DNA of 61,654 nucleotides from Girardia tigrina (lineage: Eukaryota). The translations under genes were made by a program, and so were the position numbers. This document shows, one piece after another, positions 10,791 through 61,560 of the stretch (position 1 is its first letter; each line of letters starts with the position of its first letter). The DNA is taken from assembly GCA_001938485.1 (NCBI GenBank), contig MQRK01232893.1, forward strand, positions 1 to 61,654. Reading direction: 5' to 3'. The notes below the pieces were generated by a model. The model was not told the DNA's origin and made no database searches. It saw only the letters and a list, made by a program, of their open reading frames with translations.

Positions 10791-13700
10791 CAGGCTCACA
10801 AGGTTACGACCGCAACAGTAAATAAATTGATCCCTTAAATTACATAAGTTAATAGAATAATCCTTTAAATTACCATAGTAAATAAAATTACTCTTTAAAT
10901 TACAGAAGTAAATAAATTGATCCTTTAAATTACAAAAATTAATAATATAATTCTTCAACTTACACGAATATATAAAATAAATAATTCTTGTTAAAGTGAA
11001 AGTTAAAATGATTGTTTAATTGGCGTTATGGCTCATACAAATATAACAGCAGCGCGCAGTATTGTTGAATTTTGAAATGAGAGGTTATATGAGGATGGAG
11101 GTGTCTTAATCTGTTGGGTCTGCAATAAGTGAGTAGACCACATTCGCCGTGACCCAATAAAAAATTTTGAAGGGAAGAAGCGCAAAGAAATTGCTGAATC
11201 GATAAAAAGATGCTCTACAACTTTAGAAATGGAATTCAGAGTACCAACAAATCAGACGTCAATCTCTAGATGTTTTCAGCGACATGAGTCGGCAAAGATG
11301 CATCAAGACAATATTTGCAGAGTAGTGACGAAGGTTTTTTCTGTCTGCAACATCTGACTGGAAAAACTAGACTACCCATTAATGAGAAACTTTTTAAGTG
11401 ATCATATTAATGATGGTGGTGCTGTTCCCGCTGCTAATCAACTCCGGTATACTTATTTGTCAAAACTGGCAACTGAGGAGCATGATGGGATTGTTTCCGA
11501 TTGATTTCTAGCTGTCGGTGTGGACGTGACTGCAGACCTTATGAGCTGCTCGATTGCTCATGTTATATTTTATTCATTTGAATATGAAATTGTGCATAAT
11601 GGTCCAGTTATACTAACTCCTTATTTGAAACTCGCAAAAGAAGACTTTTTAAATATTGTAGATCCCCGCTCATTATCGAACGTGGTTTTAAGGAAATTAT
11701 ATGGATACAGAGTAGAATTAAAGAATGTTAGAGTTTTCTTATCGGATAACGCCTCCTACATCTGGAAGGCGTTTCGAGATGTACTATCGGTTTCTCTCAT
11801 AAAATCTAACACTTCACTTGCATCGCTCATATTTTAAACATAATTGAGGAAGAATGGTGTAAAACGTTTGGTAATGTTGATAAGTTATTTTAACTTGTAA
11901 AGACGATTCTGATTAAGGCTGCTGATCGATGTATACAGTTTCTAGCGTTTCTTCGTCAGCAGAATATTGAGTAACCAACTCCACATCCAGAACCATGTAT
12001 AACACTTTGGGTTATCTGGTTTTGATCAGTTGACTATTACTCAAAAATGTTGAAGTATTACCTAGGATTCGTGTTACGAGCGAGGGAGAATGAATTTGAT
12101 ACTTCTTCTATTCAGCAACTTCACTTGTTGCTGTCTACAGATAAGGCATCCTGCAGTCTACTACTACCTTTAAAATAAAATGTGCTGCGAACCGATTTAT
12201 TCTCCAACTGCATCTCTATACATCAGAAGGTCAGAAACAACCTGGTTTCAAAATTTTGAGAGCTCTGAAGTTATTCTATTACCACGTTTTTATTAGCTTG
12301 CTTTCTTGTCTGTTTGTCTGTCTGGAACAAATCTTGCGATTGATTTTTCGACCACTTTCAGTCATCCAATTGAGCTGAATTTTTTTATACAGNNNNNNNN
12401 NNNNNNNNNNNNNNNNNNNNNNNNNNNNNNNNNNNNNNNNNNTGTCTTAATCTGTTGGGTCTGCAATAAGTGAGTAGACCACATTCGCCGTGACCCAATA
12501 AAAAATTTTGAAGGGAAGAAGCGCAAAGAAATTGCTGAATCGATAAAAAGATGCTCTACAAATTTAGAAATGGGATTCAGAGTACCAACAAATCAGACGT
12601 CAATCTCTAGATGCTTTCAGCGACATGAGTCGGCAAAGATGCATAAAGACAATATTTGCAGAGTAGTGACGAAGGTTTTTTCTGTCTGCAACATCTGACT
12701 GGAAAAACTAGACTACCCATTAATGAGAAACTTTTTAAGTGATCATGTTAATGATGGTGGTGCTGTTCCCGCTGCTAATCAACTCCGGTATACTTATTTG
12801 TCAAAACTGGCAACTGAGGAGCATGATGGGATTGTTTCCGATCGATTTTTAGCTGTTGGTGTGGACGTGACTGCAGACCTTATGTGCTGCTCGATTGCTC
12901 ATGTTATATTTTATTCATTTGAATATGAAATTGTGCATAATGGTCCAGTTATACTAACTCCTTATTTGAAACTCGCAAAAGAAGACTTTTAAATATTGTA
13001 GATCCCCGCTCATTATCGAACGTGGTTTTAAGGAAATTATATGGATACAGAGTAGAATTAAAGAATGTTAGAGTTTTCTTATCGGAAAACGCCTCCTACA
13101 TCTGGAAGGCGTTTCGAGATGTACTCTTGGTTTCTCTCATAAAATCTAACACTTCACTTGCATCGCTCATATTTTAAACATAATTGAGGAAGAATGGTGT
13201 AAAGCGTTTGGTAATGTTGATAAGTTATTTTAACTTGTAAAGACGATTCTGATTAAGGCTGCTAATCGATGTATACAGTTTCTAGCGTTTCTTCGTCAGC
13301 AGAATATTGAGTAACCAATTCCACCTCCAGAACCATGTATAACACTTTGGGTTATCTGGTTTTGATCAGTTGACTATTACTCAAAAATGTTGAAGTATTA
13401 CCTAGGATTCGTGTTACGAGAGAGGGAGAATGAATTTGATACTTATTCTCTTCAGCAACTTCACTTGTTGCTGTCTACAGATAAGGCCCCCTGCAGTCTG
13501 AAATTGATTTTATTGCTCGCAACTGCTTCTGTATTGCAGATTTGATGTAGAAATTCATGGGAAGAAATGTTGCTTTAGTTATTTGTACGTGTCAGTTGTT
13601 TGACTTACTTGCTTCACTTAAATAGATGCAACAAGATACTACTACATTTAAAATAAAATGTGCTGTGAACCGATCTATTCTCAAACTGCATCTCTACACA

Positions 13701-18179: not shown

Positions 18180-18296
18180 ATGAATTCAAGATTTTCCTCA
18201 AATCCTGATAAATATGGAATGTACGATTCCGAAAGGGAAAAGGATTCATGTGGAGTCGGTTTTGTGGTGAGCATTAACGGCAATCGGTCTCATAAA
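18180..18296 (+). CDS. GLT1: Glutamate synthase (GOGAT), coding exon 1
   Basis: MNSRFSSNPDKYGMYDSEREKDSCGVGFVVSINGNRSHK has the propeptide plus catalytic N-terminal Cys motif (E.DS/CGVGF). Donor GTCAGT at 18297. Confidence 0.95.
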
Positions 18297-18380: not shown

Positions 18381-18511
18381 ATTATCGAAGAAGCGCAATT
18401 TATGTTGGTTAGTATGGAGCATCGTGGGGCTTGTAGTTGCGATAATGACACCGGTGACGGTGCCGGAGTTATGACGGGAATCCCTTACGAACTTTATCAG
18501 ACTTTTGCAAT
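18381..18511 (+). CDS. GLT1: Glutamate synthase, exon 2
   Basis: IIEEAQFMLVSMEHRGACSCDNDTGDGAGVMTGIPYELYQTFA contains the MEHRGA and TGDGAG motifs. AG acceptor at 18379-80, phase-2 donor GTAATT. Confidence 0.95.
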
Positions 18512-19460
18512 GTAATTTTTTTATAAATTATTGTTTTATAAAAATGGAAAAAATGAGCAAATTTTACGATAACACAAAAACCACTCCATGGCAAGCGTAA
18601 ACAGTAAAATATCCATAAAATGACGACTTTTTATGTATATTTAATATTAATTAATTGATTTATATATTTATGACAATTGACATTTTATTAATTAAAAAAT
18701 TATATTTGAACTTTAAAATTGTATTATATTGTTATATAATTAATTAATATTGTTTAATAATTATTATATATTTAATGTTAATTATTTAATTTGTATATTT
18801 ATGAAAATTGACATTTTAATAAATATTTTAATTGATATTACAATTTAATTAATATTTTTATTAATTTTAAGTTAAATTAATTATTAATAATTTAAATAAA
18901 ATTAATTAAATTTAATTAAATTATTATGGTAATTTAATTAATATTTTTATTAAAATTATTATATAATTTTTATATATTTAATAATAATTATTTGATTTGT
19001 ATATTTATAACAATTGACATTTTATTAATTAACAAAATATTTGAACTTTCAAATTGTTTTATGCCGTTATTTATTTTTAATTTTAAAAGTGATTTTCAAT
19101 TACAATGTTTTTAATTACAATAACAAATTTTTATTTTTATAATATCAGAATTTATTGGTATTAATTTCGACAGACTATTCGTCATCTGAGGACAACTAAC
19201 AATAATTTATTTACATTTTCGATATTCTTCTATATTGTCATTTATCAAGAAAATTTTTGTTCTCCAAATCTTAATTTTTTTTACATGATTTATCATTATC
19301 ATAAAAAAAAATTTTTCAAAAATATTTTTTCTTCAAAAAATAATGTTTTAATAAGTAATATTTACTGTACAACGGTTGAGTAAGTTCTATTTATCTCTCC
19401 AAGGTGTGGTGTTGTGTAGCAACATACATTGACAAAATGCTGCATGTAAAAAGTCTGAAG

Positions 19461-26630: not shown

Positions 26631-26789
26631 AAATTTATTAATACGGACTTTCTATTACGCTATTTTTCATTGTTAAGTAAATATTTAAGAGGAATTTAGG
26701 ATTGTTTCTGTGCATCTGTTTTTTGGTTCGTTTTCAAAATACAATATACAAAACACAAATTTTCCACAAATATTATTTTAATTTGTTTT

Positions 26790-27275
26790 GTTTTTTTGTC
26801 ATTATCTTTTAACTATATAATTATTAGAAGGGGATAAATTTAAAATTTACAATTTTTAATTTTAATAAATGATCATTTAATTTTAAATTTATTAATTATA
26901 ATTTCATTTATATTAGTTTTTTAGCATGGATTAAATAAATATTTTATGAAAATTATATCATTTTCCTTATATAATAACCAAACACCATTTTATAAATGAC
27001 ATTTAAATTAATAAATTAAAAATTTAAATGATAATTTATTCAAATAATATTTAATTTTACTTAAATCTAAAATTATTCAAAAAAATATTATTTGCTTTTA
27101 CGTAAATCTAAAAATATAAGCTTCCATATATAATAACAAAACAAAAAACTCATATAATAATAGTTAAATTAACAATTTAAAAATTAAATGATCATTTATT
27201 AAAATTAAAAAGTGTAAAATGAAAATTTATCGCATTTTAATAGTGATATAGTTAAAACCTAATTACAAAAAATCA
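26790..27275. repeat. Degenerate foldback element with about 100-bp inverted arms
   Basis: TTTTAATTTTAATAAATGATCATTTAATTTT (about 26855) is mirrored at about 27180-27210, and the similarity extends outward on both arms. Confidence 0.65.
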
Positions 27276-27507
27276 AAAAAATACTGAAATATAAAAAATA
27301 ACAGTTTCCATGTATGATTTCCACCAAACAAAAAATAGTTAATAAAGTAATAATAAATTTCAATCGGATAAGTGTTTGGTTATATCAACAATAAAAGATA
27401 AATATTGCAACCATATTTGATCGGAAAACAAGCTTGTATATATCTTCTTTCAAATTCCAAAATTGTTTGAGAGCCTCGGAGCTAGATAACCACTGTACCT
27501 TGATATA

Positions 27508-33303: not shown

Positions 33304-33926
33304 ATTTTAAGTATAATGTTTCATATAATGTTTTATAAAAATTCGAGAATATTACAATATTACTTATTAATACTGACAGTTGTAATTTGTCTATTTCAAT
33401 AAATATTGATTTTAAATTCTGGTGGTTTTTAGAATTATCGTAAAATTCCACATTCTATTCGTAAATATTAGTAAAAAGGTTTTATAAAAAAGGGTGTATT
33501 GAAAAAATATTGCAGGGAAACTTTCGTAGAAAAAACATCGCAGATATTTGACAAATTTCCATCGCGAAACTTTTCCTAAATTATTGTTGAATTGTACATT
33601 TTCACCACAAGGTGATATCATCGCATGGACAAACATCACGGGTATTTTGATACTTCTTTACGAGAAAAAATAGAAAAAATCGAGATAATACTTTATTTAA
33701 CTGAATTTTTCATTTTACTTTTTGAAGCAAGATTAAACTATTTTTGTATCTGTAGAAATGATTTTAGATTTTTTTTGAGATTAGATTTTTATTTATAATA
33801 AATTAATGTACTATGTTTTTTTTAAACTTCTGTTACATCTATGACGTATTAATTTTTTTATTGCCATTTGATTGGTTATTTTATCACCAATTATCAATTA
33901 TGATTTAATAAAAATAATGTAAATTA

Positions 33927-35196
33927 TTGGGTTGGCCAAAAAGTCATTGCGTTTTTTTACTAAAATATTTATCATCAAAAAATGACATGCATGCACAAAT
34001 ATTTTTACACGATATACTGTCCATTATTTTCAATCACTTTCTTCCACCTTTCCCGTAGCTTCATTAATCCTGATTCATAAAAACCTTTGCCTTTGTCAGC
34101 AAAAAAGCCGTCTAGGAACGATTTGATGTCATCATCACTGGCGAATGTTTTTCTGTTTAAGGAATTCTGCAGTGATCTAAATAAGTGAAAATCAGAATAC
34201 GGTTGGTGCGGCAAAACCTCCCAATCCAGTGATAAGAGTTTCTGGCGAGTGGTCAAACTTGTATGCGGTCTTGCGTTATCATACTGAATTACAACTCCTT
34301 TTCGATTTGCCAATTCAGGACGTTCCTGTTGAATTGAATGAGCCAATTTCTGAAGCTGACCACAATATCTGTCTGAATTGATGGTTTTATTCCTCGGAAG
34401 GAGTTCAAAAAACACAATTCCTTTAAAATCCCACCAGACGGAAAGCATAACCTTCTTTTGGTGAATTTCTGCNNNNNNNNNNNNNNNNNNNNNNNNNNNN
34501 NNNNNNNNNNNNNNNNNNNNNNNNNNNNNNNNNNNNNNNNNNNNNNNNNNNNNNNNNNNNNNNNNNNNNNNNNNNNNNNNNNNNNNNNNNNNNNNNNNNN
34601 NNNNNNNNNNNNNNNNNNNNNNNNNNNNNNNNNNNNNNNNNNNNNNNNNNNNNNNNNNNNNNNNNNNNNNNNNNNNNNNNNNNNNNNNNNNNNNNNNNNN
34701 NNNNNNNNNNNNNNNNNNNNNNNNNNNNNNNNNNNNNNNNNNNNNNNNNNNNNNNNNNNNNNNNNNNNNNNNNNNNNNNNNNNNNNNNNNNNNNNNNNNN
34801 NNNNNNNNNNNNNNNNNNNNNNNNNNNNNNNNNNNNNNNNNNNNNNNNNNNNNNNNNNNNNNNNNNNNNNNNNNNNNNNNNNNNNNNNNNNNNNNNNNNN
34901 NNNNNNNNNNNNNNNNNNNNNNNNNNNNNNNNNNNNNNNNNNNNNNNNNNNNNNNNNNNNNNNNNNNNNNNNNNNNNNNNNNNNNNNNNNNNNNNNNNNN
35001 NNNNNNNNNNNNNNNNNNNNNNNNNNNNNNNNNNNNNNNNNNNNNNNNNNNNNNNNNNNNNNNNNNNNNNNNNNNNNNNCTGAAAATTAAGGTTTCAGAA
35101 TATATAATTGAATTTAAATTTTATCACATCGTTTTATATTTTCAAGCTTTTTATTAGGACGTACTAAAAAACGCAATGACTTTTTGGCCAACCCAA
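33927..35196 (-). mobile_element. mariner transposon (mellifera-like), young, spanning an N-gap
   Basis: Perfect 31-bp TIRs TTGGGTTGGCCAAAAAGTCATTGCGTTTTTT with TA flanks. C-terminal transposase at 34005-34448. Confidence 0.95.
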
Positions 35197-35299
35197 TAGT
35201 AAATCAAAAAATTAAAATTTTAATATCCATTCTTTATGCAGACTGTTAGGTTGGGAATTATCAACCATTCTAAATCAAAAAGAAATTAAGACTTGCAAA

Positions 35300-35830: not shown

Positions 35831-38362
35831 AACTATTTTAAATGAACTATAAAAAAGATATTGTAAGATTTTAATATAAATAGTAAAGTAGTATGCATGA
35901 ACATTCTAATAATGTCTAAATGAATTCCTTGAGTTTTTTTTTGGTTATTCACTTATTTTTCCTACTATTTCTTTCGACACTCCACAAGTCAATACAAATA
36001 CCCTCGAACATATCAGTTACTTGTATTTTCACAGAATTTTCTTTAGTTCTCGTAAAAACCACTTTAAGTTTTGACACGCTACATATCTCTGAACGTCTTT
36101 TTGAATTATCTGTGTGACGCCAAACAGTGGACAGTAAAATCACGGATTTCAAGAATATATTGAAAAGGGCTTTTAAACGGCCATCATCCATAATCCTGGA
36201 TCTCAATGAGTTGATGACTTACAGGAAAGATGCCGACTCAGTGACAATATTTTTCGAAAAAATTAAAAAAAATGTGGATAGAGTGCTGTTACACACGTGG
36301 AACAAGCAGGAATTGATTACCTATTTCCTCACCCATAGTGTCAAGGATGTGTCAACCAGGACGCAAAATTTTATGCAAGAAGCGCAAGTTCTGGACTCCA
36401 TTCAAACGGTGATCGAGAAAATGGAGCACCTCATGGTGGAAGTACTATCCAACGAGATTGCGTTATTGCAACAGTAAAAGATTTTCGCGAATATATTGCG
36501 AGAGAAATCAAATTTCTGGAAACAACCCCGTTTCCAACAGACAAGGGAATTCCGACCGGAATCAATCAAACGAAATAAAATTTATGATCAAAGAAACCAA
36601 CAGAGATACCAGAAGCCGACGAGAAAGGTGACTGTATGTTTCAATTGTAGAAAAACTGGACAGATGAGACGGGGATGAAAAACGGTTTTACGGATGCCAT
36701 GCCAAAGGACATATCCGGAGAGAGTGGCCATATCTAAAATGTGCGAATTGCAAGGCACATTAAAATATTATGGTACCAATGCTTCAAACAAGAAGGCAAA
36801 CAGATTAATCGAGATCCGATCGGGTGATAATCGAACCGGTATAAATCGAGATTGGCAGGAATCAATGAAATGGAGGAGATAGATGGATGTGACCGAGACA
36901 TATCGGGAAATGTAAAAGCCTATCAGCCAAAAGAGGATAAGAGTCATAAATTAAAAAGTAAGAATATACTGGATCCGGTGATTTCTAATATTACTGATTG
37001 TAATTGAAATTTTAATTATATTAATAATTATAGTAATGTATGTAATAATGTATTTTAAGTATAATACTTATAATGTATGCAGTTTTAATGATTATAATAA
37101 ACGTATATGACAAGAAAAATTTTTATTGATAATTCAATTCAAGAGTATAAGATAATTAAATATGAGATTTCACCGAAGGAGAAACTAGACTATAGTGAAT
37201 TTAACGGTGGGCCCAGTATTACGGTTAGGATTGAAGGAATGGAGAATAACTGTTTATTAGACACAGGGGCCCGAATCAATGTTACTGTCTTGGAAATTGC
37301 ACAAAAGTTACAGGTTAGAATAAATAATAGGACAATATCATCGATAATATGTGCAAACGACAGTGGAATGGATATAGTTGGTACTTGTAGTTTTATAGTG
37401 GTATGGAAAAACACGATAGTTATTAAGTTATTTTATATGGCAAAAGCTGTTTTCCAAGCAATAATTTTTGGAATAACATTGACCAGAGCGATTGGTTTAG
37501 AACTGAGATGGAGTAGAGAGAATACAATAAAAGATTAGAATGATAGAACCGAACCTCATGGAGAAATTTGTGTTTTAAATATCTCTGTATAAATAAGTTG
37601 AAATATACCGATACAATGCAGTTTTTGAACGAAAAAGTACATTTTAAAGGAAGTAAATAAGTTATTTAAATGTATCAACAAGTTTTAAAATATATATTGG
37701 CTGGAAGATGGGATATATGTTAAGACGACGTTGGTTAAACACAAAATTGACACAACAGGACAACCGATTCTACGAAAACCGCGGAGGCAGCCAAACCATC
37801 TGGAACGACATATAAATGATGCAATCAGTAATCTGGAAATACATGGTAAAATAGAGAAATGCTCGTCACCATGAAATACACCACTGGTGTGCGTTTGGAA
37901 GAAAGAGACCAAAGAAATCCGTTTTTGTTTGAGTTTTAGGTGACAGAGAGACCTTCATTTCCTATACCGAACATTGACGAGATGGTAGACTCACTGAAGG
38001 GTATTAAATGGTTCAGTTCCATTGACCAGGCGAATGCTTACTAGTAGGTGGAATTAGAAATGTCATCGAAAGTAAAAACTGCGTTCTCAACTAAAACAAG
38101 ACAATATTGTTTCACGATAATGCCATTTGGTATTGCAGCAGCTCCGGAGGACATTTCATAAACTGATCGCGGACGTTTTGAAAGAAATATTGGGGAAGGA
38201 AGTAATGGTTTATTTGGACGACATCCTGCTATTTTCGAAAACCCAAACAGAACACTTGGATAGGTTTGAAAAACTATTTACACGGATATAAGCTGCGATA
38301 CTGAGATTAAATCCCGAAAAATGCAAATGCTTTCAAGATGAGTTGAGATTTTTAGGTCAATA

Positions 38363-38752
38363 GTTAATGGCCGCAATTGTGTACGCTGGATCTCGTTTGA
38401 TCTCCAAGTTAAGCAAGCAAGGCTGTGTTAGTACTTATATGGGTGACCGATAGGGAAATCGCTAGGTCATTGACTACAGGTCAGGTCAAACTAGCTGTTT
38501 GCTACAGGTATAATGTATACCTGTAATACCTGTCCCATAGTCAAATGGTTGGCGACTAAACCGGCTCCCTCACTCAGAGCAACCTGGGTGAAGAGGGTGT
38601 GTGGACACCTAGCAGGATGGAGCCAACGGCCATCAATATAGTCAATGACCGTAGTTGGGTACTGAGACACTCAAAAATATGCAAAACCAAGCCGTAAATG
38701 CTTGTGCATAATTGAGTGCACCCACGGCCCAACGGTTACGGTACCAAAAAAA
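38363..38752 (+). mobile_element. 5S rRNA-derived SINE (SINE3-like)
   Basis: Head GATCTCGTTTGATCTCCAAGTTAAGCA..GTTAGTACTTATATGGGTGACCG..GGGAA matches the 5S A-box/IE/C-box region. Unique body, then an A7 tail. It interrupts the Gypsy RT FLGHI|VNR motif. Confidence 0.85.
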
Positions 38753-39873
38753 GTGAACAGAGATAGAATCAAGACTGACCCGGAAAAGATAAAATCAATT
38801 ATGGAATTCGAACAGCCAAAATATATAAAGAAATTATGGAGTTTCCTGGGACTATGAAATTACTACAGAATATTTATACAAAATTAGTCGAAATTGACAA
38901 AAAATATTAAAATAAATATGTTGAAGCTCAAAAAATTTGATGCATTGGTCGGAAGTCTACTCGACATCTTTCATATTGTGCTATCTAGATTTTAAAAAAG
39001 AATTTATTTTAGATACGGACGCGTCCTTTGAAACCATACTAGCAGTACTATCATAGAAAAATGCCAAAGGGGAAGAACATTTTGATTGCATACGGATCGA
39101 AATCAGTTTCAAAACACGAGATAGGATATTGAAGCATCAGGAAAGAATTATTAGCTATCTTCAATTTTAAACAACATTTAAGCATCATTTGTATGGTGCC
39201 AGATTCAAGTAACGGACAGACCATAAAACGATCAAGTTTATGAAGACGAAGAAAAAGCCAATCACCCAACAATTTCAGAATTAGATGAGTTTCTTGAGTA
39301 GTCTGGACATGAAATTAGAATATCGAAAAGGTGAATTACACAAAAATGCGGCCACATTGTCTCGAAAGGATTGCATGGTATGTTTGTAATGTCTTATACA
39401 GCACGAGCAAGCTAAAACGGATAAATTCAAGACGTGATTGTTAGTAATAAAATGATGGTCTTCTTTCAGTTCCGCGGCAACAAGATAGTTAGGATATTAG
39501 AGAAATTATTAAAGCAATTGGAGAAGGGAAAGAAACAAGATTTAGGCAAAATGAATGATATATAAAAACAGTGGATAACAAGATATGGATATAAAATTGT
39601 ATTCTATTTTTGCATAAAGCCCTTTGTCACTCCGGGTAAAGAAAACTTACATATTCATGAAAGAAGAATATGATATAGAAGAGCTTAATAAAATAGCAGA
39701 GACAATAATACGGTCATGTAAAATATGTCAAACAGCAAAAACGTACACGGGAAAGACAAAAGAAAAAATAAAGAATATTATAGTATATCGATCAATTGAT
39801 GACATTTACATGGAATTTTGTGGACCGATGTCAATTATTAGCGGAAAAAGTATGTTCTTGGTATAAAAGACAG

Positions 39874-40402
39874 CATTAAGAATATTGAGACAAGTCTCAT
39901 TTGAATTTTTATTACTACACATTTAGAGTCATTACAACTCTAAGAAGATCTTTCATCGTTTGATATCGCTCCAATTGGTTTCGTTATTTCTCTCTTTAAT
40001 CATGATTATTCGAACAATTTTTCTAAATATTTTTACAATACTTAATTTTTAGAAATAATAATTAAAAAATAATTATTTAAAACATTTCTAAATCAAAACA
40101 CAAAATTATAAAAGAATGTTATCAAATTATTGAAATGACTTTAATTTAAATCTTATTAAATTTATTTAAATTTAATTAAATGCTTTCTTTTCTTAAAAAA
40201 TATGAAATTTAATTTAAATTGTTAAATTAAAAAAAATAAAAACTTATTATTTTAATTATGTTTGAATAGTCAATCACTTTAAATTTAAAAAATACCAATT
40301 TCCATCTGGGTGGGAGAATCACCATTCTAAATTCAGCATACTCAAATCAAAATACATCATCACTACATTCACTCATTCAAAAATTTTAAAATATTCCTCA
40401 CA
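39874..40402 (-). repeat. Solo LTR inserted in the Gypsy integrase
   Basis: 5-bp duplication GACAG (39869-73, 40403-07) splits the D-RFSRY integrase motif. The minus strand starts TGTGAGGAATATT. Confidence 0.85.
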
Positions 40403-40957
40403 GACAGGTTTAGTAGATATGTCAGCCTTACATCAGTTATATAATCAAGCTGAGACGACAACAATACAGACGGTAAAACATAAGTGGATATTTCGGTTTG
40501 GAGCACCAGCGTACATTCATGTGGACCATAGAAAAGTATTCGAATCTCGGTTATTTGGAGATTTCGCGAAATCGCGATTGATTAAGATAGCATTTTCGAG
40601 TTCATACTACCATAGTTCGAACGGAATTATAAAGACAATTCAGAACCGTTCGAGATACATTAAACGCAATACTGAAAGAAAGAGAGTAAAATTTGGGTAG
40701 AATTAGTACCGGAAATAGAGTTCAGTATGAACGCGTACAATTTGATATAGTACGGCGGAAATAATTTTTGGAAAACGATTGAACTCTTGATTGCCCCCGA
40801 CATTACGAGTTGGATAACTAGAAGATCATTGATGAAATTAAAAATATTTGAGATGCAAACGCCAATTACAACTACTATAAAACGGGATTTTCAGGTTGGA
40901 GACTGGGTATTAGTGAAAATAGAAAATCGACAGAAAGATTCGGATCGTTATAATAAT

Positions 40958-42890
40958 AGTAGTGGGAAAATTGGGATTCTACATCAATCGATAATTTACC
41001 CCCCATGGGGGTACCCATTTCCATGGCAGCGGCTACTATGGCAACGGTCGTGGTTACCATGGCAGGGGCTACGGTTACCATGTCAACGGTTCCGGTTACC
41101 TTAGCAACGACCACGGTTACCATAGCAACGGAATATTTGAAATATTGATTTTTCAGCACTTTTTCGAACATGTTGATATTGAATCTGACTATTCATATAT
41201 GAGTTTCTATACATGTGTTCAGACAGATTTTCGGTATTTTGTTTTCTTCGACCTCTATACCCTATGAGAGTTCTCCACCACTTTACAATATAATATATAG
41301 CATGTCAATAATCGATTTCTGGTAACTTTTCGGATAATGTTAAAACAGCATCTGGCTATATACATATGGGTTTCTATCCATGTGTTCAAACAGATTTTTC
41401 ATAATTTGCTTTATTCACCCTCTGCTTTACACTATAATACACAAATATCAATAATCGATATGTGTGCGTTTTTTCAAAATTCTAAGATCATATTCCGACT
41501 ATTGATTTATCGGTTTCTATCCATGTGTTCAGACAGAATTTTGATATTTTGCTTGCTTCGCCCTCTATACCCTATGGGCATTCGACACCACTTCACATAT
41601 TATATAAAAAAATATGAGTATATTGCACTTTGCACAATTGTGATTTGCACACTCGCACTAATCCTAGGCAGACTGAACATGTGCAGTATTGATTAGCACA
41701 AGTGTAGTACATGTACAGCACTGTGCAGACGAGTGAAGTATTAATTTTTAGCACTTTTCTTGTAATTTTGGTGTTTTTTTATGTGTTTTCGATGATTTCT
41801 AAGGTGTTTTTCATGATTTTTAAGGTAACGATGATGGTTTCTAAGGTGTTTTTGATTGTTTTTATATATAATATTAAAATAATATTTTATATATAATATG
41901 GTTGATGTCTAGGCTCAGGTACTTTAGCAGATTATATAGATGTTATGTATAATGTCTATGCACGTTTTAAGTATAATAGGAGTTTTATGCATATAGTTTT
42001 TATATATAATAGAAAATGTTATTTATCTTGGTTACGGTAACCAAGGTACTCGTGATTGTTGATGAGGTACATAAGACGATTCATGAGGTATTGTTTGATG
42101 GTAAATAACATACATATATCACATGGCTTTCATATGTATACGAAAAAAATCGATTTTTAAGCACTTTTTGAGAATTGCAGAAATATTCGAAAAAATGAAT
42201 TTTCCAACACTTTTTTGAAAATGTTGATATGGAATCTGAAAGCACGTATATGGATTTCTATTCAAGTACATCAGCATATTTTTAATATTCTGCTTCCTTG
42301 TACCTCTAAAATCGATGTGCATTTTGTGTAAATTTTTACATTATGTTAATTATAGGAAAAAGTAAAAGTAATCAATATATAAAAATTCTAATTGTACATT
42401 AAGTTAGAGAATCAAAATGTGCATCAAACACATGATATCAATTTTCGACACTAGAACTTTAAAAAATTTTTATGTATTGACTTTCGCACATGTGCAACGT
42501 AAAAAGGACTCTGCTAGCACATTAAAAATGTGCGGCACAATGTGCACTATCGATTGTCACTTTGAAAATATCGATTAGCACACTTGTACACTGTTCAGCG
42601 ATCGATTAGCACTTTTTCTACGGTTGTGAAGGAAGGGGTTACGGTTGCTATGGATACGGTTACCTTTACCATGGTTACAACCACCTTGGTTTACTGTATC
42701 CGTTGCTAAGGAAAAAGGTCCCTTGGTTACAGTTGTTAAGGGAACCGAAACCATTGCTAGGATACCGGGATCAAATAAGAAGTGTTTCCAAGTGAACCGG
42801 AACCGTTGCTATGGTAACCAGAACCGTTGCCATGGCAACGGGTACCTCCCGGGGGGTCAATTATCAATTGATGCAGAATCCCCATTCCCC
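40958..42890. mobile_element. Non-autonomous long-TIR element, Polinton/Maverick-like terminus
   Basis: Left end AGTAGTGGGAAAATTGGGATTCTACATCAATCGATAATTTACCCCCC is mirrored by GGGGGGTCAATTATCAATTGATGCAGAATCCCATTCCCC. 21-bp tandem units occur in both arms, with about 150-bp internal repeats. No coding capacity. The right terminal ACTACT and a TSD are not seen. Confidence 0.7.
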
Positions 42891-43365
42891 TTTTTAACCT
42901 TGTGAAATCGTTTATAAAAAACATGATCAGTGCGGGAAGATGCGAAATAAAACGGGTCAAATAGTACTCAGAAATATCGAATGGCTGAAGCCTTTTAAAG
43001 AATGGGAGTGTAAGGATAAATAATTAATTGATATTTATATTATATTTATTATACTTAATATATTACAATAACGAATCCAGAATATTCAAATTAATCTCTT
43101 GAAGTTATTTAAACAATAATTAAAATAAGCTCAGTTGTTATGGAATTCTCTTACAACAGTAATAAAAAAATAAAATTGTTACAGAAGGTTTCAAAAATAA
43201 AGTTTCATGTAAAAGGTTTAAAATATGAAGACTATAAACCATTTATTTGAAAATATTAAAACTTATTTAAAATTTTTTTATAAGTCTATTCATTTTTTCA
43301 ACTAATAGCATTATAAATTAAAATTATATTATTAAAAATTATTATTAAAATTACTTAAAATTAAG

Positions 43366-43446
43366 GTAATATTTTGGAGAAGAGCCAATGTAAATAACTT
43401 ATCAATCGGTTCTTTGGCGATATCTACAGAACCAGCAATAATTCAG
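43366..43446 (+). CDS. GLT1: Glutamate synthase, exon 4
   Basis: VIFWRRANVNNLSIGSLAISTEPAIIQ fits the WR..V....G..A...EP.I.Q motif. AAG acceptor, GT donor, phase 0. Confidence 0.9.
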
Positions 43447-43547: not shown

Positions 43548-43944
43548 GTATTTTTGATCTATTATAAATACTATTATACTATCTATTAATACTATCTTAT
43601 AAATATCTATCTTAATACTATCTATTATAAATTATTATCATAGTATATTATGAAAATATATCAACATATAAATGTTCCGAAAAAGCATACCTTTATCACC
43701 TCGGCCAGTATAAAGAGTTTAAGATATAGTCCCCAAACAGGATAAAAATGATTTTAATTGATATAATCTATCTAACAATTGGAAAAGTTTATAAAAGTGT
43801 GGAATTGTGTAAATAGGTCATATATCAAATTTATTTTCAAAATAAATCATATAAATTAAAAACAAGTGAATACATAATATTAAAAAACCATAAATAATTA
43901 TTTATCACAATGAGCAGGTGCAAAATAACTAATAAAAAATACTA

Positions 43945-44152
43945 CAGGGTGGCCCAATGGGTACACAGCCTCTAATTTTTGCATATTCTAAATCTACTCG
44001 TCAAGACGAGTATTTTGATATATAACATGTGAGGTGTAAAAATTCCAGAACTTGACCTTTTTGTGCAATAAAGGTCAAATTTTGAAACTCAGAATTTTGT
44101 TATAAAAATGTATTAAAAATATTAGAGGCTGCGTACCCATTGGGCCACCCTG
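43945..44152. mobile_element. Tc1/maT-type MITE (208 bp)
   Basis: TIR CAGGGTGGCCCAATGGGTACACAGCCTCTAAT / ATTAGAGGCTGCGTACCCATTGGGCCACCCTG, TA duplication. Confidence 0.92.
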
Positions 44153-44863
44153 TAAATAAAACTAGGTAGATAAAAGAAATAAAAATTAAGAATATTTCCC
44201 AACAATAAGTATTCCAAAAATATAGAACATTTTCAGCAAAGATATTAAGAAAAAGATAAAGATTTAACAAAAGAATTTTCAAAAAGCAAGTATTTGGACA
44301 AATAAATTTCTTCTTAGTAAATTATAATTTATTTTAATATTTCAACAATTATAGACTGCAATATTAGCTAATCTGGTTGTTGTAAAATGTTTTACTGATA
44401 CATTAACTGATATGTTAACTATAATTGTTAAGAATCTTTGATGTTTTGTACTTGGATGTTGTGTGTTGATTTGAGATTGACTCTCCTACCCCTATTGATG
44501 GTTAATATTTTAATTCTTATAATCTGAAACTAATTTGATTTAAATTTAATTGTAATATTTAAATTTATTTTTATTTAATATCCTAGTAAAATTTTAAATG
44601 ATTATTTTTAGATGTTTTTTAAATATATATATTTTTATATATATTCAATATTTAAAGCTAACATCAGTTTTTCAAGTTTTATTTATCTACAAAAAATGTC
44701 TAATACATTTTATTTAATCAAATTTAATCAAAATTAAATTCATTTATTTTTTTTAATTTTGAGGAACTAATTATTTCATAAATCTCAAATAAAAATAAAT
44801 ATTGTGAATAAATTGAAATAAAATAGGCAATTTGTCAAATACAAAATTTTTAAGCCAATTAAA

Positions 44864-45754: not shown

Positions 45755-45850
45755 GTGTTTATTCTGAGAAAATATGGTGATCGGATAATGCGAGAAGAAA
45801 ACTATCGGTTCTACATTTGCTCGCTGTCTCTACAAACGGTTGTATACAAG
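45755..45850 (+). CDS. GLT1: Glutamate synthase, exon 6
   Basis: VFILRKYGDRIMREENYRFYICSLSLQTVVYK contains the FYICSLS..TVVYK motif. TAG acceptor and GTATAA donor. Confidence 0.95.
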
Positions 45851-46039
45851 GTATAAGTTTATCAACAGTACTTTTGTATAATTGATCCAATCATTAAGAT
45901 ATAAATGGGTGTAAAATTGAGTTGAAAACAATTAGTAATTTGTACGTATAAAGAGTAGAAAATTATGATTAATATAAATTTTATTCTGTTGAGAATTTTT
46001 TATATCATTCATTTTTTTCTATTGTTTACATGTAGTATA

Positions 46040-46399
46040 TTAGTGGAGGCGGTTTTAATTACATAATCCTGAAAATCCATTTATTATAACATTTTTCAGG
46101 TCAATGTTTTGTAAAAATGATTAATTCAATATTTCTACTTGCAGTATACATTAATCAAACAATTCAATTGTAAAGGGTGCCAAATTTACATCATAATTCT
46201 ATTTTTAGTTTTTTTTCTAAGAATTCCAAGAATTGCCATTATCCATGGACTTTACTGCTATACAGCGTACGCAGATAGTGACTTTGCAACCCACACATCG
46301 CATACACGAGTTGAAATTGCTGCAAATGTGGGCTGCTCCCAATCTGCGATGTCCCGTCTGCTAAAACAGTATCAACAGACTGGGAGCAATGCAAATAAA
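46040..46399 (+). pseudogene. Tc1-like transposon 5' fragment (HTH)
   Basis: EIAANVGCSQSAMSRLLKQYQQTGS is a typical Tc1 N-terminal HTH. Confidence 0.65.
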
Positions 46400-46401
46400 T
46401 A

Positions 46402-49400
46402 AAGATCTACTTATAAATTATAAGTAGTTTATATTACTCAAAAAAATTTAAAAATAAATAAAGTCTAGTAAACCGATTTAAAGTCTAAGTAGTAAATCAA
46501 AAATATTTTTTTATATCCATGCTTTAAGCGAGCAGAACTCTGTTGGCCTATAGATTTTTTTAATCTTTTATTGTGTTTATTTTGAAAATATTTTTTAAAT
46601 TAAAATTCCTATAAATTAAACAAAAAAAGCAATAAAAACATTTTAAAATTGAAAAAAAAATCTTTCTCTTGAAGTGATTCGAATGCTCAACTATCACTTT
46701 CACACGAGAAACTAGTAAATCAAAAAAATTTTTCATTTCCATTCTTTATGCAGACAGAACTCTACTTGGCCGACAAAATTTTAATTAAAATATTTTCAAA
46801 AAAGCAAAAAAAAATAATAAATTCTGTGGGCCAAGCAGAGTTCCTTTCGCATAAAGCATAGATATAAAAAAAATTTTTTTGATTTACTAGTTAGACTTTA
46901 AATCGGTTTACTGGACTTTATTTATTTTTCAATGGGAATAAATTATTTTAGAAGATAAATGTATTATTCTAGAAGATAAAATATTATTCTAGAATATAAA
47001 TGAATTAAAGTAGAAGATAATTTTTTGAATTATACCAGCAGATAAATAAATTAAAACTGAAGATTAATGTTTTTGTTTTAAATTTTAAAATTAAAGTTTT
47101 AATTTAAATTTAAAATTAAAAAGGTAAAGATTTAACTAAAAAAGGTAAAATAAATTGTATTACTATTATTTTTAAATATAATTTTAATCAAAAAGCCATG
47201 AACTTAAAAAATTTCAAATTACCGGACCAAGATGATTCCAGTGAAGAATTCATCGAAATCCCAAAGCAACCGAAAACATCTCAGTAAGTAGATAAAAATA
47301 GTGCAAGATCCAACAATAAGCGTGGAAAAAATATAACGTACGAAAAGATAAAAACATTTAGTGATAAACACGATGCTAAAGACTATGCAATGCAAGACAA
47401 TTTATGGGTGAAATTAGATTTACGGGACTGCCAAATTGAAGGAATGAAGCAATTCTACAAATGTAAATTCAAAGCTTCTTGTGGATGCCCAGTCAAAATG
47501 TTCATGTTTTTCACCACGACAAAGAAATTGTACCAGTGTATCGATCAAAGACAAACCACAATTAGCTTGTGAAGCTAAACAATCGTGGAATACTGCATGA
47601 GATAAAAGAAGCGATTGAGGTCATATTTGTGGACTTTCAAAAGCCAGCTCAAATAAAAGAAAAACTGGAAAATAAATTTCCTAATAGACTGCTGCCTAAT
47701 TGGATTCAAATACGCAACTTCACCCAGACAATCAAGAAAAATAAGTGATCCAAAACATGCATTGATTTAGCAGAATTAGATGAATAGTGCAGTGCGAGAA
47801 GCCAAATCCCAGATAACCAATGTTTAGATCATATTTAAGTAAGGCATCAATGTGGCAGTGAAGTGAACCCATCAACAGGTAAAATGGAACCCAAGTTCAA
47901 TATCTGGATAACAAAAAGACGATTGACCTCATTATGCCAAAAAATCAAAACACCTTTGTGCCGATACAACATACAAACTGATTTATCAAGGATATCCAGT
48001 GTTAATGGTTGGATAACAACAACAGATAAAAAGAAAAGCTTTCATCTGTTCGGTATAGCAATTTGCACAAATGAACGCAACCAAGATTTCGAATTCATAT
48101 TCAAATCAATTAAGACATGTGCTAAACAATTTGACAATTTTTATTATGAACCTGACACTTTAATAGCAGATGTCGCAGACGCAACTACCATTGGATTCAA
48201 ATCAACATTTGATGAAAATTCCCTAAAAAAGAGTAATGGTTCCACATGAAAAAGGCGTACGAGGGATCAGACTCACAATCAAAATCACCATTCAAAGCGA
48301 TCGACAAAGACAATAAAGCTCGGTTGCGATACGATATCTCTATTCTACAGCTATTCGAATCTAAAGAGATATTCGACAAAGGATTCCAGTTGTTTAAGAA
48401 AAAGTGGAATGATCTAAAGGACAATACAATTAATCAATTCCTTCAATATTTCGAAAAAAGAGTGGTATACAAAACATTCGGGTTGGTATGAAGGATTTGT
48501 GCCAGGATTAACAAGCAAATATAATGGCATAGAATCAACTAATGGTGTGATAAAGAAAGATGGAACAACTCGCAAGCGTTTATCATTGGCTCGCTTTCTG
48601 GAATTAGTTGAGTATAAAATTGTCAAAGATTGGTCAATCAATAGGAATCCGGAAAACCCAATTAATCCGATTTTGTTTGACGAGGTTCCACCAATTAGTC
48701 ACGAACTGTGGCTTAAAACGTACAACACCACTCAAAGAGAAATGACAGCAGTGATGTCAAAAAACAAAGAGAAGATTTATTACATGGCGTCAGGTCAAAT
48801 TGCTACAAATTTCAAAGCAGATTTAAAAGAATATAGAAGGCTAAAAGATAAACTCAACTGGACTGATTTTGATTCGTTCAAGGACATGCAGTCGCGTTTC
48901 TGGGAACTATGTTTAATGGAAGATAAGGACAATTGGATATTTAGCACATGCAACTGAAGAGAATTCCAAAAAAAATATATCTGCAAACATTTATTACTGG
49001 TTGCCTGCCGTTATGAATATACTTCAATACCATTGAGAGCGCAAAATATGCCAATGGGTCCAAAACAGCAGCGTGGTCACCAGCAGAAATCACATTTTCT
49101 TTGGAAAAAATGCCTGTACCAGTGCCGAAGAAGCGTAATACAAATGAAGTGTTGCCAACTAATAATTTAAAAAAATGTAAAATGTAATTTTTATGGATAA
49201 AATTTGTTATAAAAGTAAATTTAATTAATTAAAACATCTTATCTTTTTTTTGCAATTTATCTGCTGGTTTAGTTTATTTTATTATAAATTAATTCATTTA
49301 TCATTTAATTTAATACTAATTAAATTTATCTTTTGGAATGATTTATTTATCTTCCGAATTAATTCATTTATCTACTGTGTTTATTCATACCCTTTTTCAA

Positions 49401-59099: not shown

Positions 59100-61560
59100 C
59101 AAGGTTTTTTATTTGCCCAGACGGAACTTTATCTGATTGACTGATCGGCTTTGTTTGTCTTCAGAATCATCGGTCGCCACCTCGGTGATCACTGCAAGCT
59201 GCATAGGACAGCTACTTCGCAGGCTTTATTCAGAGCTCCTCAGCATCATCGGCATCCTCGAATATTGGACCTTAAATAACAGGGGCTCTTAGATTCTGGG
59301 CTGGATCATCTCGGAATTGGGATATACTGCTTGTGTCTCTCCCATCACATAAGGCAGCCCATTGACGAGCACTCCATCGAATATTGGATCTGATGGTTGC
59401 GTTTGCAATGGCCTTCTCCCTATCTGAGAGAAAGATGTCCTTGAGAGGTTTGTGGTTCTCTGGGAACCAGGATCCTAAAGTTCCTACAATGAAGGTAAAC
59501 AATAGCACGTTGTGGTCGTTGTATTGATTCCTTGTGAATTCCGCCAGTGGATCATAATATTCGAGATTGTCCTTATTAGCCCGTTCCAAATTTTTTTCCT
59601 ACTCAAAAGGACACTTAACATCTATTAAGATAATTCTCTTTTTCTCAGGGAAGTAAATCTACAAGTCACCTTTGAGTAGGGAGTAAACAAAACGACATTG
59701 AACGTTGACAGAGTTCAACGTTGCAGCACTCGCGAATTTCCGAAGCAAGAATGTCAAGAGAGGTATCATGCCGAGCATTAGTGTAGGACATGAGGGTAGG
59801 ACAGGAACAGAGGACATGTTTGAGAGTTTCCACATGTTCACGGCATCGCCTACAAGGAGCAGTTTCCCCAAACCGAAATTTAACTGGGAGAGTGTATGAA
59901 CGACCCTTCTGAATGAATTGCCATTCAAACTCGGATAGGTGACTGTTGTACACAACAGAAGTCGTGTATGTAAATAGGGAGAGGGTAGATGCAGACCGAC
60001 CCGCACTCTATTGTCCATGAATGGAGATAATGGAGGGAAAGACCCTTTCTGAAAAACACAGCAACTTTATCCTTTTCAGACGTCTGGATGGTGGAAGAAA
60101 TTTGATATTCAGCATTAGAGAGTCTAATGGTGATGTAAGTATAAGGAAAGTCATCACCGAAGCGGATAGTAATGCCACGACCCTTCAAGACAGAGATTGC
60201 GTGCTGAATTTTGTTCCACCAGTTCTTACAGGCAAATGGTGAAAACCCCTCATTAATTCATTCAAAAATCTCAGCTCTGGAAACTTTTTGGGATGTATGT
60301 TTTAGGGTAATCCACACAGCCTCCTTCACAAAGTTATCGGAAGAGTTAAGAAGGTAGAAGCTATGGGTAACGGATTGCACCAAATACTCATCAAATACAG
60401 AAGTCAGGCCAACACCACCATGTTGTTTGTCCGTGTAAATATAGTAGTTCGAGGGATGCAGAGAAAGGTTCAAAAATTCTTTGTGTTCTTTCCGGACAAC
60501 AATTTCCCAACTTTACAAGCTGTAATATCAGGAAAAGGAATATAAGTATTGCGGAAAAAGAATACCCTTTTCGGGTGAACAAAAGTTTGGTAGGCGTGAA
60601 GTTTCTGAAAGAGAGTAGACAGAGTTTTTTATAATGACAAAATACACCAGAACATCTTCAATAACTTGCTCAGGTGTGTGACGGAAAAGACGATAAATAA
60701 AACTACCCAAGTAAACATAGCCTTGATCAGCCTTCAAATGGGGAATTAGTTGATAATTTAAGAAGATCATGTTGTCAGCATTATATGGAAAATCCATATA
60801 TGTACATTTAGATCGTCTGAATTCCATACCCACAGTTTTAACGTATTTGGAGGCACAGCCCACAAGAGTATTAAGAGCAAATTCGTAGAGGTCAAAAAGC
60901 ACAAGATAATCTGCATAAACCATACAAGAAATGGTGAAAGTACCAACCGTAACTTGGTTACGACACCGGATAGAATCAAGTTTGTTAAGGATCGGAGTGA
61001 TACTTATATTAAACAAGAGCATTGACAGGGGACACCCCTGTCCAACTCCAACAGTGATTGCTAACCGGTCAGTTACTTCGCCTTCATATATTACCCTGAT
61101 GTGGCAGTCACGATACAATTCCTTGAGTAGTCCAATAGATTGCTGAAGGAGGCCCATCTTTTCAAGAACAAACAGGATGTAATCCACAGAAATTGTTTGG
61201 AATTCCACAGTGAAGTTCGGAATTTTTCTCGTTGATCAATAATAGCTCGCAAGAGAAATGTATGTTCCGCACTGCCATCCGCAGGTCCAAGGCTCTTTTG
61301 GAGTGTATGAAGAAGTTGATTTACTTTGATCCAAGCCTTCAGTTGCCAACAAAGGAGTGTAGTGAGAAGTTTATAAAGACATTCTTGAAGTACAATGCCC
61401 CTCATGAAAAGGGAAGGTGATATTCGCCCTCCTTTCCCGATTTAGGAATCATGAGAGTGTCAAACATTTTCCAATCAGAAAACAGTGTTGGTTTCAATGA
61501 TCTTTGCAAAAATTTTCTCACAAATGACTCTGTCTGGGTCAGAATATAAAATATTATGAT
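59100..61560 (-). mobile_element. RLE-type non-LTR retrotransposon (NeSL/R2-like), 5'-truncated and decayed
   Basis: RT motifs GVGQGCPLSMLLFN, VYADY and YVYLG, and GGVGL. CCHC CRRC..ETLKHVLCSC, NARHD, IDVKCPFE and FIVGTLGSW. AATAAA on the minus strand near 59108. Confidence 0.9.

Follow-up and report, generated by a model that had tools for sequence, protein, structure and literature searches.

A 1.9-kb stretch of the Girardia tigrina genome, lodged within a glutamate synthase (GOGAT) intron, is a non-coding insertion in an older Gypsy-type retrotransposon relic, bearing inverted arms assembled from 21-bp units that contain the palindromic X-box motif of RFX transcription factors. The element itself is of an ordinary kind, a non-autonomous foldback transposon; its repeat unit is the unusual part. 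It represents an aged, decayed member of a foldback-type family that is very high in copy number, modular and structurally fluid, and we tentatively favour a reading in which the arm arrays would dock the host's own RFX protein. The window analysed comprises 61,654 bases (contig MQRK01232893.1, GenBank assembly GCA_001938485.1); an earlier note, made from these letters alone, had described the stretch as a Polinton-like element with helically phased arrays of RFX X-boxes at both ends.

An insertion in a Gypsy relic within the GOGAT gene

The element spans approximately 40957-42894, its left end falling at about 40952-58 and its right end at about 42890-97, limits drawn from the points at which a Gypsy reading frame breaks off and resumes and at which paralogous contigs stop. 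To its left (37101-40951, +) lies a decayed Gypsy-type LTR retrotransposon whose motifs for protease, RT, RNase H and integrase lie at 37257, 38211, 39015, 39216 and 40518, and which also gives a weak aspartyl protease match. Comparison with a paralog shows the integrase tail interrupted at 40951 and picked up again at 42898: in the Gypsy paralog at 35704-35471 both integrase blocks are present, two residues apart, and the continuation aligns by tblastn to 35587-35471 of that paralog (E 0.001). The segment at 42898-43117 (+) accordingly holds the rest of the integrase tail, followed by a purine tract and a probable LTR start. In two paralogous Gypsy contigs the alignment ends at 40950. The element is an insertion into this older relic.

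The whole nest lies inside an intron of GOGAT, a metabolic, non-ciliary gene of at least 40 kb (18249-58722) whose introns hold nested Gypsy, mariner, hAT-like and Mutator relics. The identity of the gene is given by the match of 18381-18512 to PF00310 (E 3.4e-13); besides this exon, others occur at 18249, 45756-45851 and 58722, and the next exon to the right of the element (43366-43446, +) is some 470 bp away. From the CGVGF motif at 18249, the first coding motif of GOGAT, the element is separated by about 22.7 kb; being intronic and roughly 22 kb into the gene, it therefore does not occupy a promoter position, and its X-box arrays are not near the start of a ciliary gene. The earlier note placed it about 0.5 kb upstream of GOGAT exon 4, a position that is intronic and within the Gypsy relic; the exon itself starts at 43366. 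An enhancer role at GOGAT has no support. No Pfam match was found for the longest reads of four of the six frames of the element, or for three flank frames, and Rfam gave no match in the element, which is non-coding, as had been proposed.

Inverted arms built of 21-bp X-box units

The left arm opens with a tip (40957-41016, +) that begins TAG, or AGTAGT when read from 40958, and continues into an array (41017-41131, +) of five 21-bp units, at 41032, 41053, 41074, 41095 and 41116, in exact 21-bp register, together with a decayed unit at 41017. The right arm comprises inner, decayed X-box-like units (42620-42783, -; at 42644, 42665, 42702, 42732 and 42753) with breaks in register; outer 21-bp units (42784-42839, -), of which that at 42784 is decayed, that at 42805 matches the strict consensus and that at 42826 is a perfect palindrome; and a right tip (42840-42894, -) that repeats the left tip in inverted form apart from its last five to seven bases. 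Inverted alignment of tip to tip pairs 43 of 50 bases and scores 66, where shuffles reach at most 20. Tandem Repeats Finder (TRF) delineates two period-21 arrays, one of 4.9 copies at 41030-41131 and one of 2.1 copies at 42795-42839. Unit numbers are unequal between the arms, only the outer 170-270 bp or so of the element is mirror-image, and the left arm folds as a single strand no better than its shuffles (z -1.09).

The strict pattern GTNRCC-N0-3-RGYAAC occurs at four sites (41095, 41116, 42805 and 42826; five strand hits), all in the arms and all of the form GTNRCC-N2-RGYAAC, with no match in the remaining 59,713 bases of the window; 2,000 block shuffles of the element yielded a mean of 0.013 and a maximum of one. 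Allowing up to two mismatches, the sequence GTTRCCATRGYAAC gives 21 strand hits across the window, where 1.71 are expected, and 9 of the 12 distinct sites lie within the element. These matches, the TRF arrays and the inverted tips bear out the earlier description of both arms as 21-bp units with X-box-like 14-mers. All six 14-mers quoted there are present at the positions given for them; those at 41095, 41116, 42805 and 42826 satisfy the strict RFX consensus, and those at 41053 and 41074 fall short of it. Because 21 is the commonest TRF period in the window (9 of 57 rows), helical phasing of the units counts as weak evidence.

Interior modules

Between the arms, a module (A) of about 145-170 bp occurs in three tandem copies (41132-41615, +) and in a fourth (42182-42330, +), the four showing 72% mean column identity; the fourth has the same orientation as the others, and the interior is therefore no mirror image. 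A second module (B; 41625-41758, +) is weakly similar to 42517-42617, at a marginal score of 35 against a shuffle maximum of 33. TRF further identifies a GT-rich 21-bp repeat of 3.5 copies (41783-41856, +); kinship of this 21-mer with the X-box unit is not borne out, the alignment score of 26 equalling the shuffle maximum.

Termini and superfamily

The AGTAGT previously noted at the left end is present at 40958 and, with only 20 occurrences on the + strand of the window, its position at the junction is not trivially due to chance. Vertebrate Mavericks are described in PMC8097293 as ending in 5'-(AGT)2...(ACT)2-3' or (AG)3...(CT)3 with 6-bp duplications. Here an ACTACT-type right end is lacking, with at least three of six positions mismatched at all 15 candidate ends from 42886 to 42900, and the junctions of this copy contain no exact 6-mer pair that could be a target duplication; one 6-mer pair has a single mismatch and does not adjoin AGTAGT. 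The Polinton-like assignment is not sustained by these ends.

The base preceding AGTAGT is T, giving TAGTAGT and hence a TAG start at 40957. Exact duplications near both junctions are limited to 3-mers, which are common by chance in AT-rich DNA; TAA alone abuts TAG, providing a weak candidate target duplication (40954-40956 and 42895-42897) that leaves five bases as against the six implied by paralog spacing. In these respects the element may be compared with Academ: in a curated bivalve library (PMC10294476, supplement file 24) all seven Academ consensuses shown begin TAG, one of them TAGTAG, and AcademX target duplications measure 3-4 bp according to PMC10045372. It differs in that its right end is without CTA, a terminus (5'-TAG...CTA-3') deduced for Academ from the symmetry of terminal inverted repeats (TIRs), and in that the curated bivalve entries are without X-box arrays in their first 400 bases. 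An Academ-like TAG start with a 3-bp duplication is the best fit for the ends, and a weak one. No exact duplication of 8-10 bp, as in Phantom or Mutator, was found at the junctions; two 8-mer pairs occur with two mismatches each, one of which would delete Gypsy codons. Two further candidates were set aside: a similar 10-mer in both flanks (40944 and 42907), which as a duplication would remove Gypsy codons that the paralog keeps, and a Kolobok-type TTAA, found on the right side only, with one mismatch on the left. As neither terminus nor duplication is clean, transposition of the element as a unit is something we infer.

Representation of the family in sequencing runs

Contigs from two public runs of one study, both of which contain the stretch, were aligned at 80% likeness onto 2.8 kb around the element, to which 73,332 and 57,612 contigs mapped, most of them 90-95% alike or less. 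Summed depth rose to 9-11 million over the interior and to 2.7-6.0 million over the right array; near-identical flank contigs summed to 129 and 185. The ratio of element to flank depth, roughly 10^4-10^5, is to be read as an order of magnitude and not as a copy number. Depth at the tips was only about 2,000-2,900 (summed), and some interior positions also dipped to about 7,000. Contig joints, of which 15 are shown among 438, skip or repeat modules, with the caveat that at 80% likeness repeats can misplace short contigs; none of these 15 spans the whole element as an empty site would. Beyond 42839, 190 and 151 contigs have loose ends (agreement about 0.5) that lead into further units of a box plus seven bases; arrays in other copies mostly run on rather than into a tip. 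Among 40 letter differences listed of 468, two fall in left-arm boxes: at 41033, where the other letter takes up 99% of the depth, and at 41066, where it takes up 96%, other copies bring two units nearer the X-box. From a third run, X3, derived from another organism, eight reads aligned, none of them on the element.

Conservation of the box and its recurrence elsewhere

Within this copy, differences from the unit consensus affect 9 of 84 box positions and 10 of 42 spacer positions (Fisher p 0.05), a contrast that yields p 0.07 for the four full left units alone. Positions fixed in the RFX consensus (5 of 48 differing) show no better preservation than its degenerate positions (4 of 36), and bases flanking the box are also conserved, in 10-11 of 13 units.

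A scan of metagenome contigs for two X-boxes 21 bp apart, with four centres allowed, returned 43 loci, which are thus selected for the box and for one pitch. Twenty-four were judged eukaryote-like, five of them by protein domain and the rest by composition and the lack of prokaryote-style genes (L025 stands outside the 24), and about 15 groups with unrelated spacers could be distinguished. An AT centre in each of the two boxes is seen in 23 of the 24 eukaryote-like loci and in 4 of the 19 others, and the commonest metagenome box is the variant found at 41116 and 42805. Across ten metagenome array segments, differences affect 25 of 672 box positions and 25 of 336 spacer positions, figures biased by the selection and in no segment significant alone. 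The eukaryote-like arrays look like free minisatellites, and comparison of the element's tips and interior with all 46 retrieved loci gave no match.

These minisatellites (L009, L012/L017, L016/L040, L022, L026, L031, L032, L036 and L046, all on eukaryote-like contigs) consist of up to 15 units of an X-box 14-mer joined to a lineage-specific 7-base spacer. Those of L026 and L031 adjoin genes for Na/K-ATPase-like and RRM proteins, L026 carries an additional array at 20-bp pitch, and one group has an E-box-like CACGTG in its spacer. A hairpin repeat family of about 67 bp (L009:31-108 and 795-861; L031:2288-2355) adjoins X-box minisatellites.

Bacterial contigs contain intergenic pairs of a perfect 14-bp palindrome 21 bp apart (L044:10001-10035; also L004, L045 and L042). 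The L044 pair lies 45 bp ahead of a gene encoding a Rieske oxygenase, next to which comes one for a MarR regulator, and is probably a MarR operator resembling an X-box. Viral contigs gave no match to the tip pattern and no variable-gap X-box pairs; pairs at 21 bp occurred at three viral loci, all unrelated to the element: two are repeats in phage coding sequence, and the third is a non-coding pair near a helicase-like gene. A non-coding palindrome pair on a phage or satellite contig (L003:844-878; also L020 and L034), near a DUF5906 helicase-like gene, could represent origin iterons. In the curated bivalve library, sampled over the first 400 bases of each entry in 14 of 33 supplements (PMC10294476), and hence short of inner arms and right ends, five X-box 14-mers had no exact match and six X-box 10-mers had three single matches.

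Discussion

The composite inverted arms with unequal tandem subrepeats, and the heterogeneity of the copies, are the structural hallmarks of foldback elements. Galileo (P superfamily), Tetris and Tm1 (Phantom/Mutator) share with the present element arms composed of a unique tip and tandem units, unequal unit numbers and many rearranged non-autonomous forms, and Tm1 also has asymmetric terminal bases outside its inverted part. The present element is unlike them in that its unit is the palindromic motif of a host transcription factor at 21-bp pitch, and unlike Tm1 in that a 9-bp duplication was not found at its junctions. Conversely, its four consensus-matching sites liken it to the X-boxes of ciliary promoters, from which it differs in presenting tandem arrays far inside a metabolic gene's intron in place of one or two promoter sites. 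The open-access literature yielded no paper tying X-boxes to transposon arms or minisatellites.

Our preferred reading, to which we assign somewhat less than an even chance, is that of a non-autonomous, foldback-type cut-and-paste transposon whose arm arrays would dock host RFX. A DDE transposase from an autonomous partner would cut in trans at the tips; the arrays would offer docking sites to a multimeric protein, as for Galileo, and the unit palindrome would be an X-box because dimers of host RFX bind it. Several such dimers, loaded on one face of the helix immediately within either end, would hold the ends open. In autonomous copies, RFX arrays would also activate the transposase gene; both would take place in germ-line or ciliated cells rich in RFX, where opening of the ends would benefit the transposon. 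Host RFX is favoured as the reader because the 12-position word recurs on unrelated backgrounds and because RFX proteins are nearly invariant in the residues that touch DNA; this recurrence suits a conserved host reader better than a single transposase. The cited sources describe binding of the consensus GTNRCC-N0-3-RGYAAC by RFX dimers with nearly invariant DNA-contacting residues (PMC10530576) and link RFX to germ-line and ciliated cells (PMC2797782); they also indicate that the presence of an X-box is by itself no predictor of RFX control (PMC2375033) and that multiple X-boxes can tune or repress (PMC3245922). Counting against a reading of the arrays by RFX are the fixed positions that are no better kept, the conserved flanks and the palindrome pairs in bacteria that lack RFX. 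The X-box sites of this particular copy would be decaying neutrally and probably have no effect on GOGAT.

The same foldback anatomy would accommodate units that bind the element's own transposase, or an RFX-like winged-helix domain encoded by a partner, with host RFX a bystander, and we regard this as an unlikely but serious contender. It has precedents in Galileo, whose THAP domain binds the tandem repeats of its long TIRs (PMC3688188), and in the arms of Tm1, made of tandem units of about 14 bp; it would also account for conservation of the unit beyond the box, and identical palindrome pairs are carried by RFX-free bacteria. Against it, a repeat unit is unlikely to match a 12-position consensus by chance, the X-box word recurs on unrelated backgrounds, and X-box arrays are no general trait of DDE arms in the first 400 bases per entry of the bivalve library. 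The earlier note had named a classical DDE transposon as the alternative that would undo its own reading, and the anatomy is that of such an alternative, a foldback-type cut-and-paste element.

A rather improbable account sees no single mobile unit here: the 1.9-kb stretch would be a patchwork of minisatellites and satellites that no longer moves, or never moved, as a unit, its X-box units having been amplified neutrally. The contrast of tip depths of about 2,000-2,900 with the millions in array and interior bins is in keeping with such a patchwork, as are joints that skip or repeat modules, arrays that seldom lead into a tip, interior modules arranged as direct repeats, the free minisatellites of X-box 21-mers in the metagenome and the seeding of satellites by Tetris repeats. 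However, the inverted 50-bp tips lie within a few bases of the points at which the Gypsy frame breaks and resumes, as a single insertion predicts, and interior dips to about 7,000 make the low tip depth non-decisive. Still more doubtful, in our estimation, is descent from a Polinton/Maverick that underwent internal deletion, retained its arms and used RFX at its termini. AGTAGT, the commonest Maverick end motif (PMC8097293), stands at the left junction, the arm length lies within the Maverick range, and the right end might have decayed; yet the element has neither a right ACTACT, a 6-bp duplication nor any genes, neither the tip pattern nor X-box pairs retrieved a Polinton-like viral contig, and Academ starts in TAG or TAGTAG explain the hexamer equally well.

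Should host RFX read the arrays, as in the reading we prefer, this would put a name to a host factor by which DNA transposition is timed to ciliated or germ cells, and would reveal how a single repeat family scatters clustered RFX sites by the thousand. A bolder generalization, which we consider unlikely, is that unrelated animal DNA transposons have repeatedly built arms of phased RFX sites and exploit the host's regulator of cilia and germ line as a cofactor in opening their ends. The family would then have spread some 10^4-10^5 such arrays in this genome, enough to soak up RFX or to provide the seeds of ciliary enhancers, and minisatellites of 21-bp X-box units found across marine eukaryote DNA would have been shed from such arms.

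Other features of the window

A broken non-LTR retrotransposon occupies 59272-61441 (-); 59275-59598 has no Pfam match, and the last frame is presumably that of the type with a restriction-like endonuclease, which it resembles. A mariner-type element at 33925-35198 has perfect 33-bp inverted ends and an interior partly filled with N. Two more AT-rich inverted-repeat elements, at 26774-27291 and 46396-46933, are without X-boxes, as is a 212-bp MITE at 43943-44154, in the next GOGAT intron, which has 38-bp inverted ends (95%) and TA at both termini. Finally, 11102-12159 and 12443-13499 form a direct duplication of 1,058 bp whose copies are 97.9% identical.
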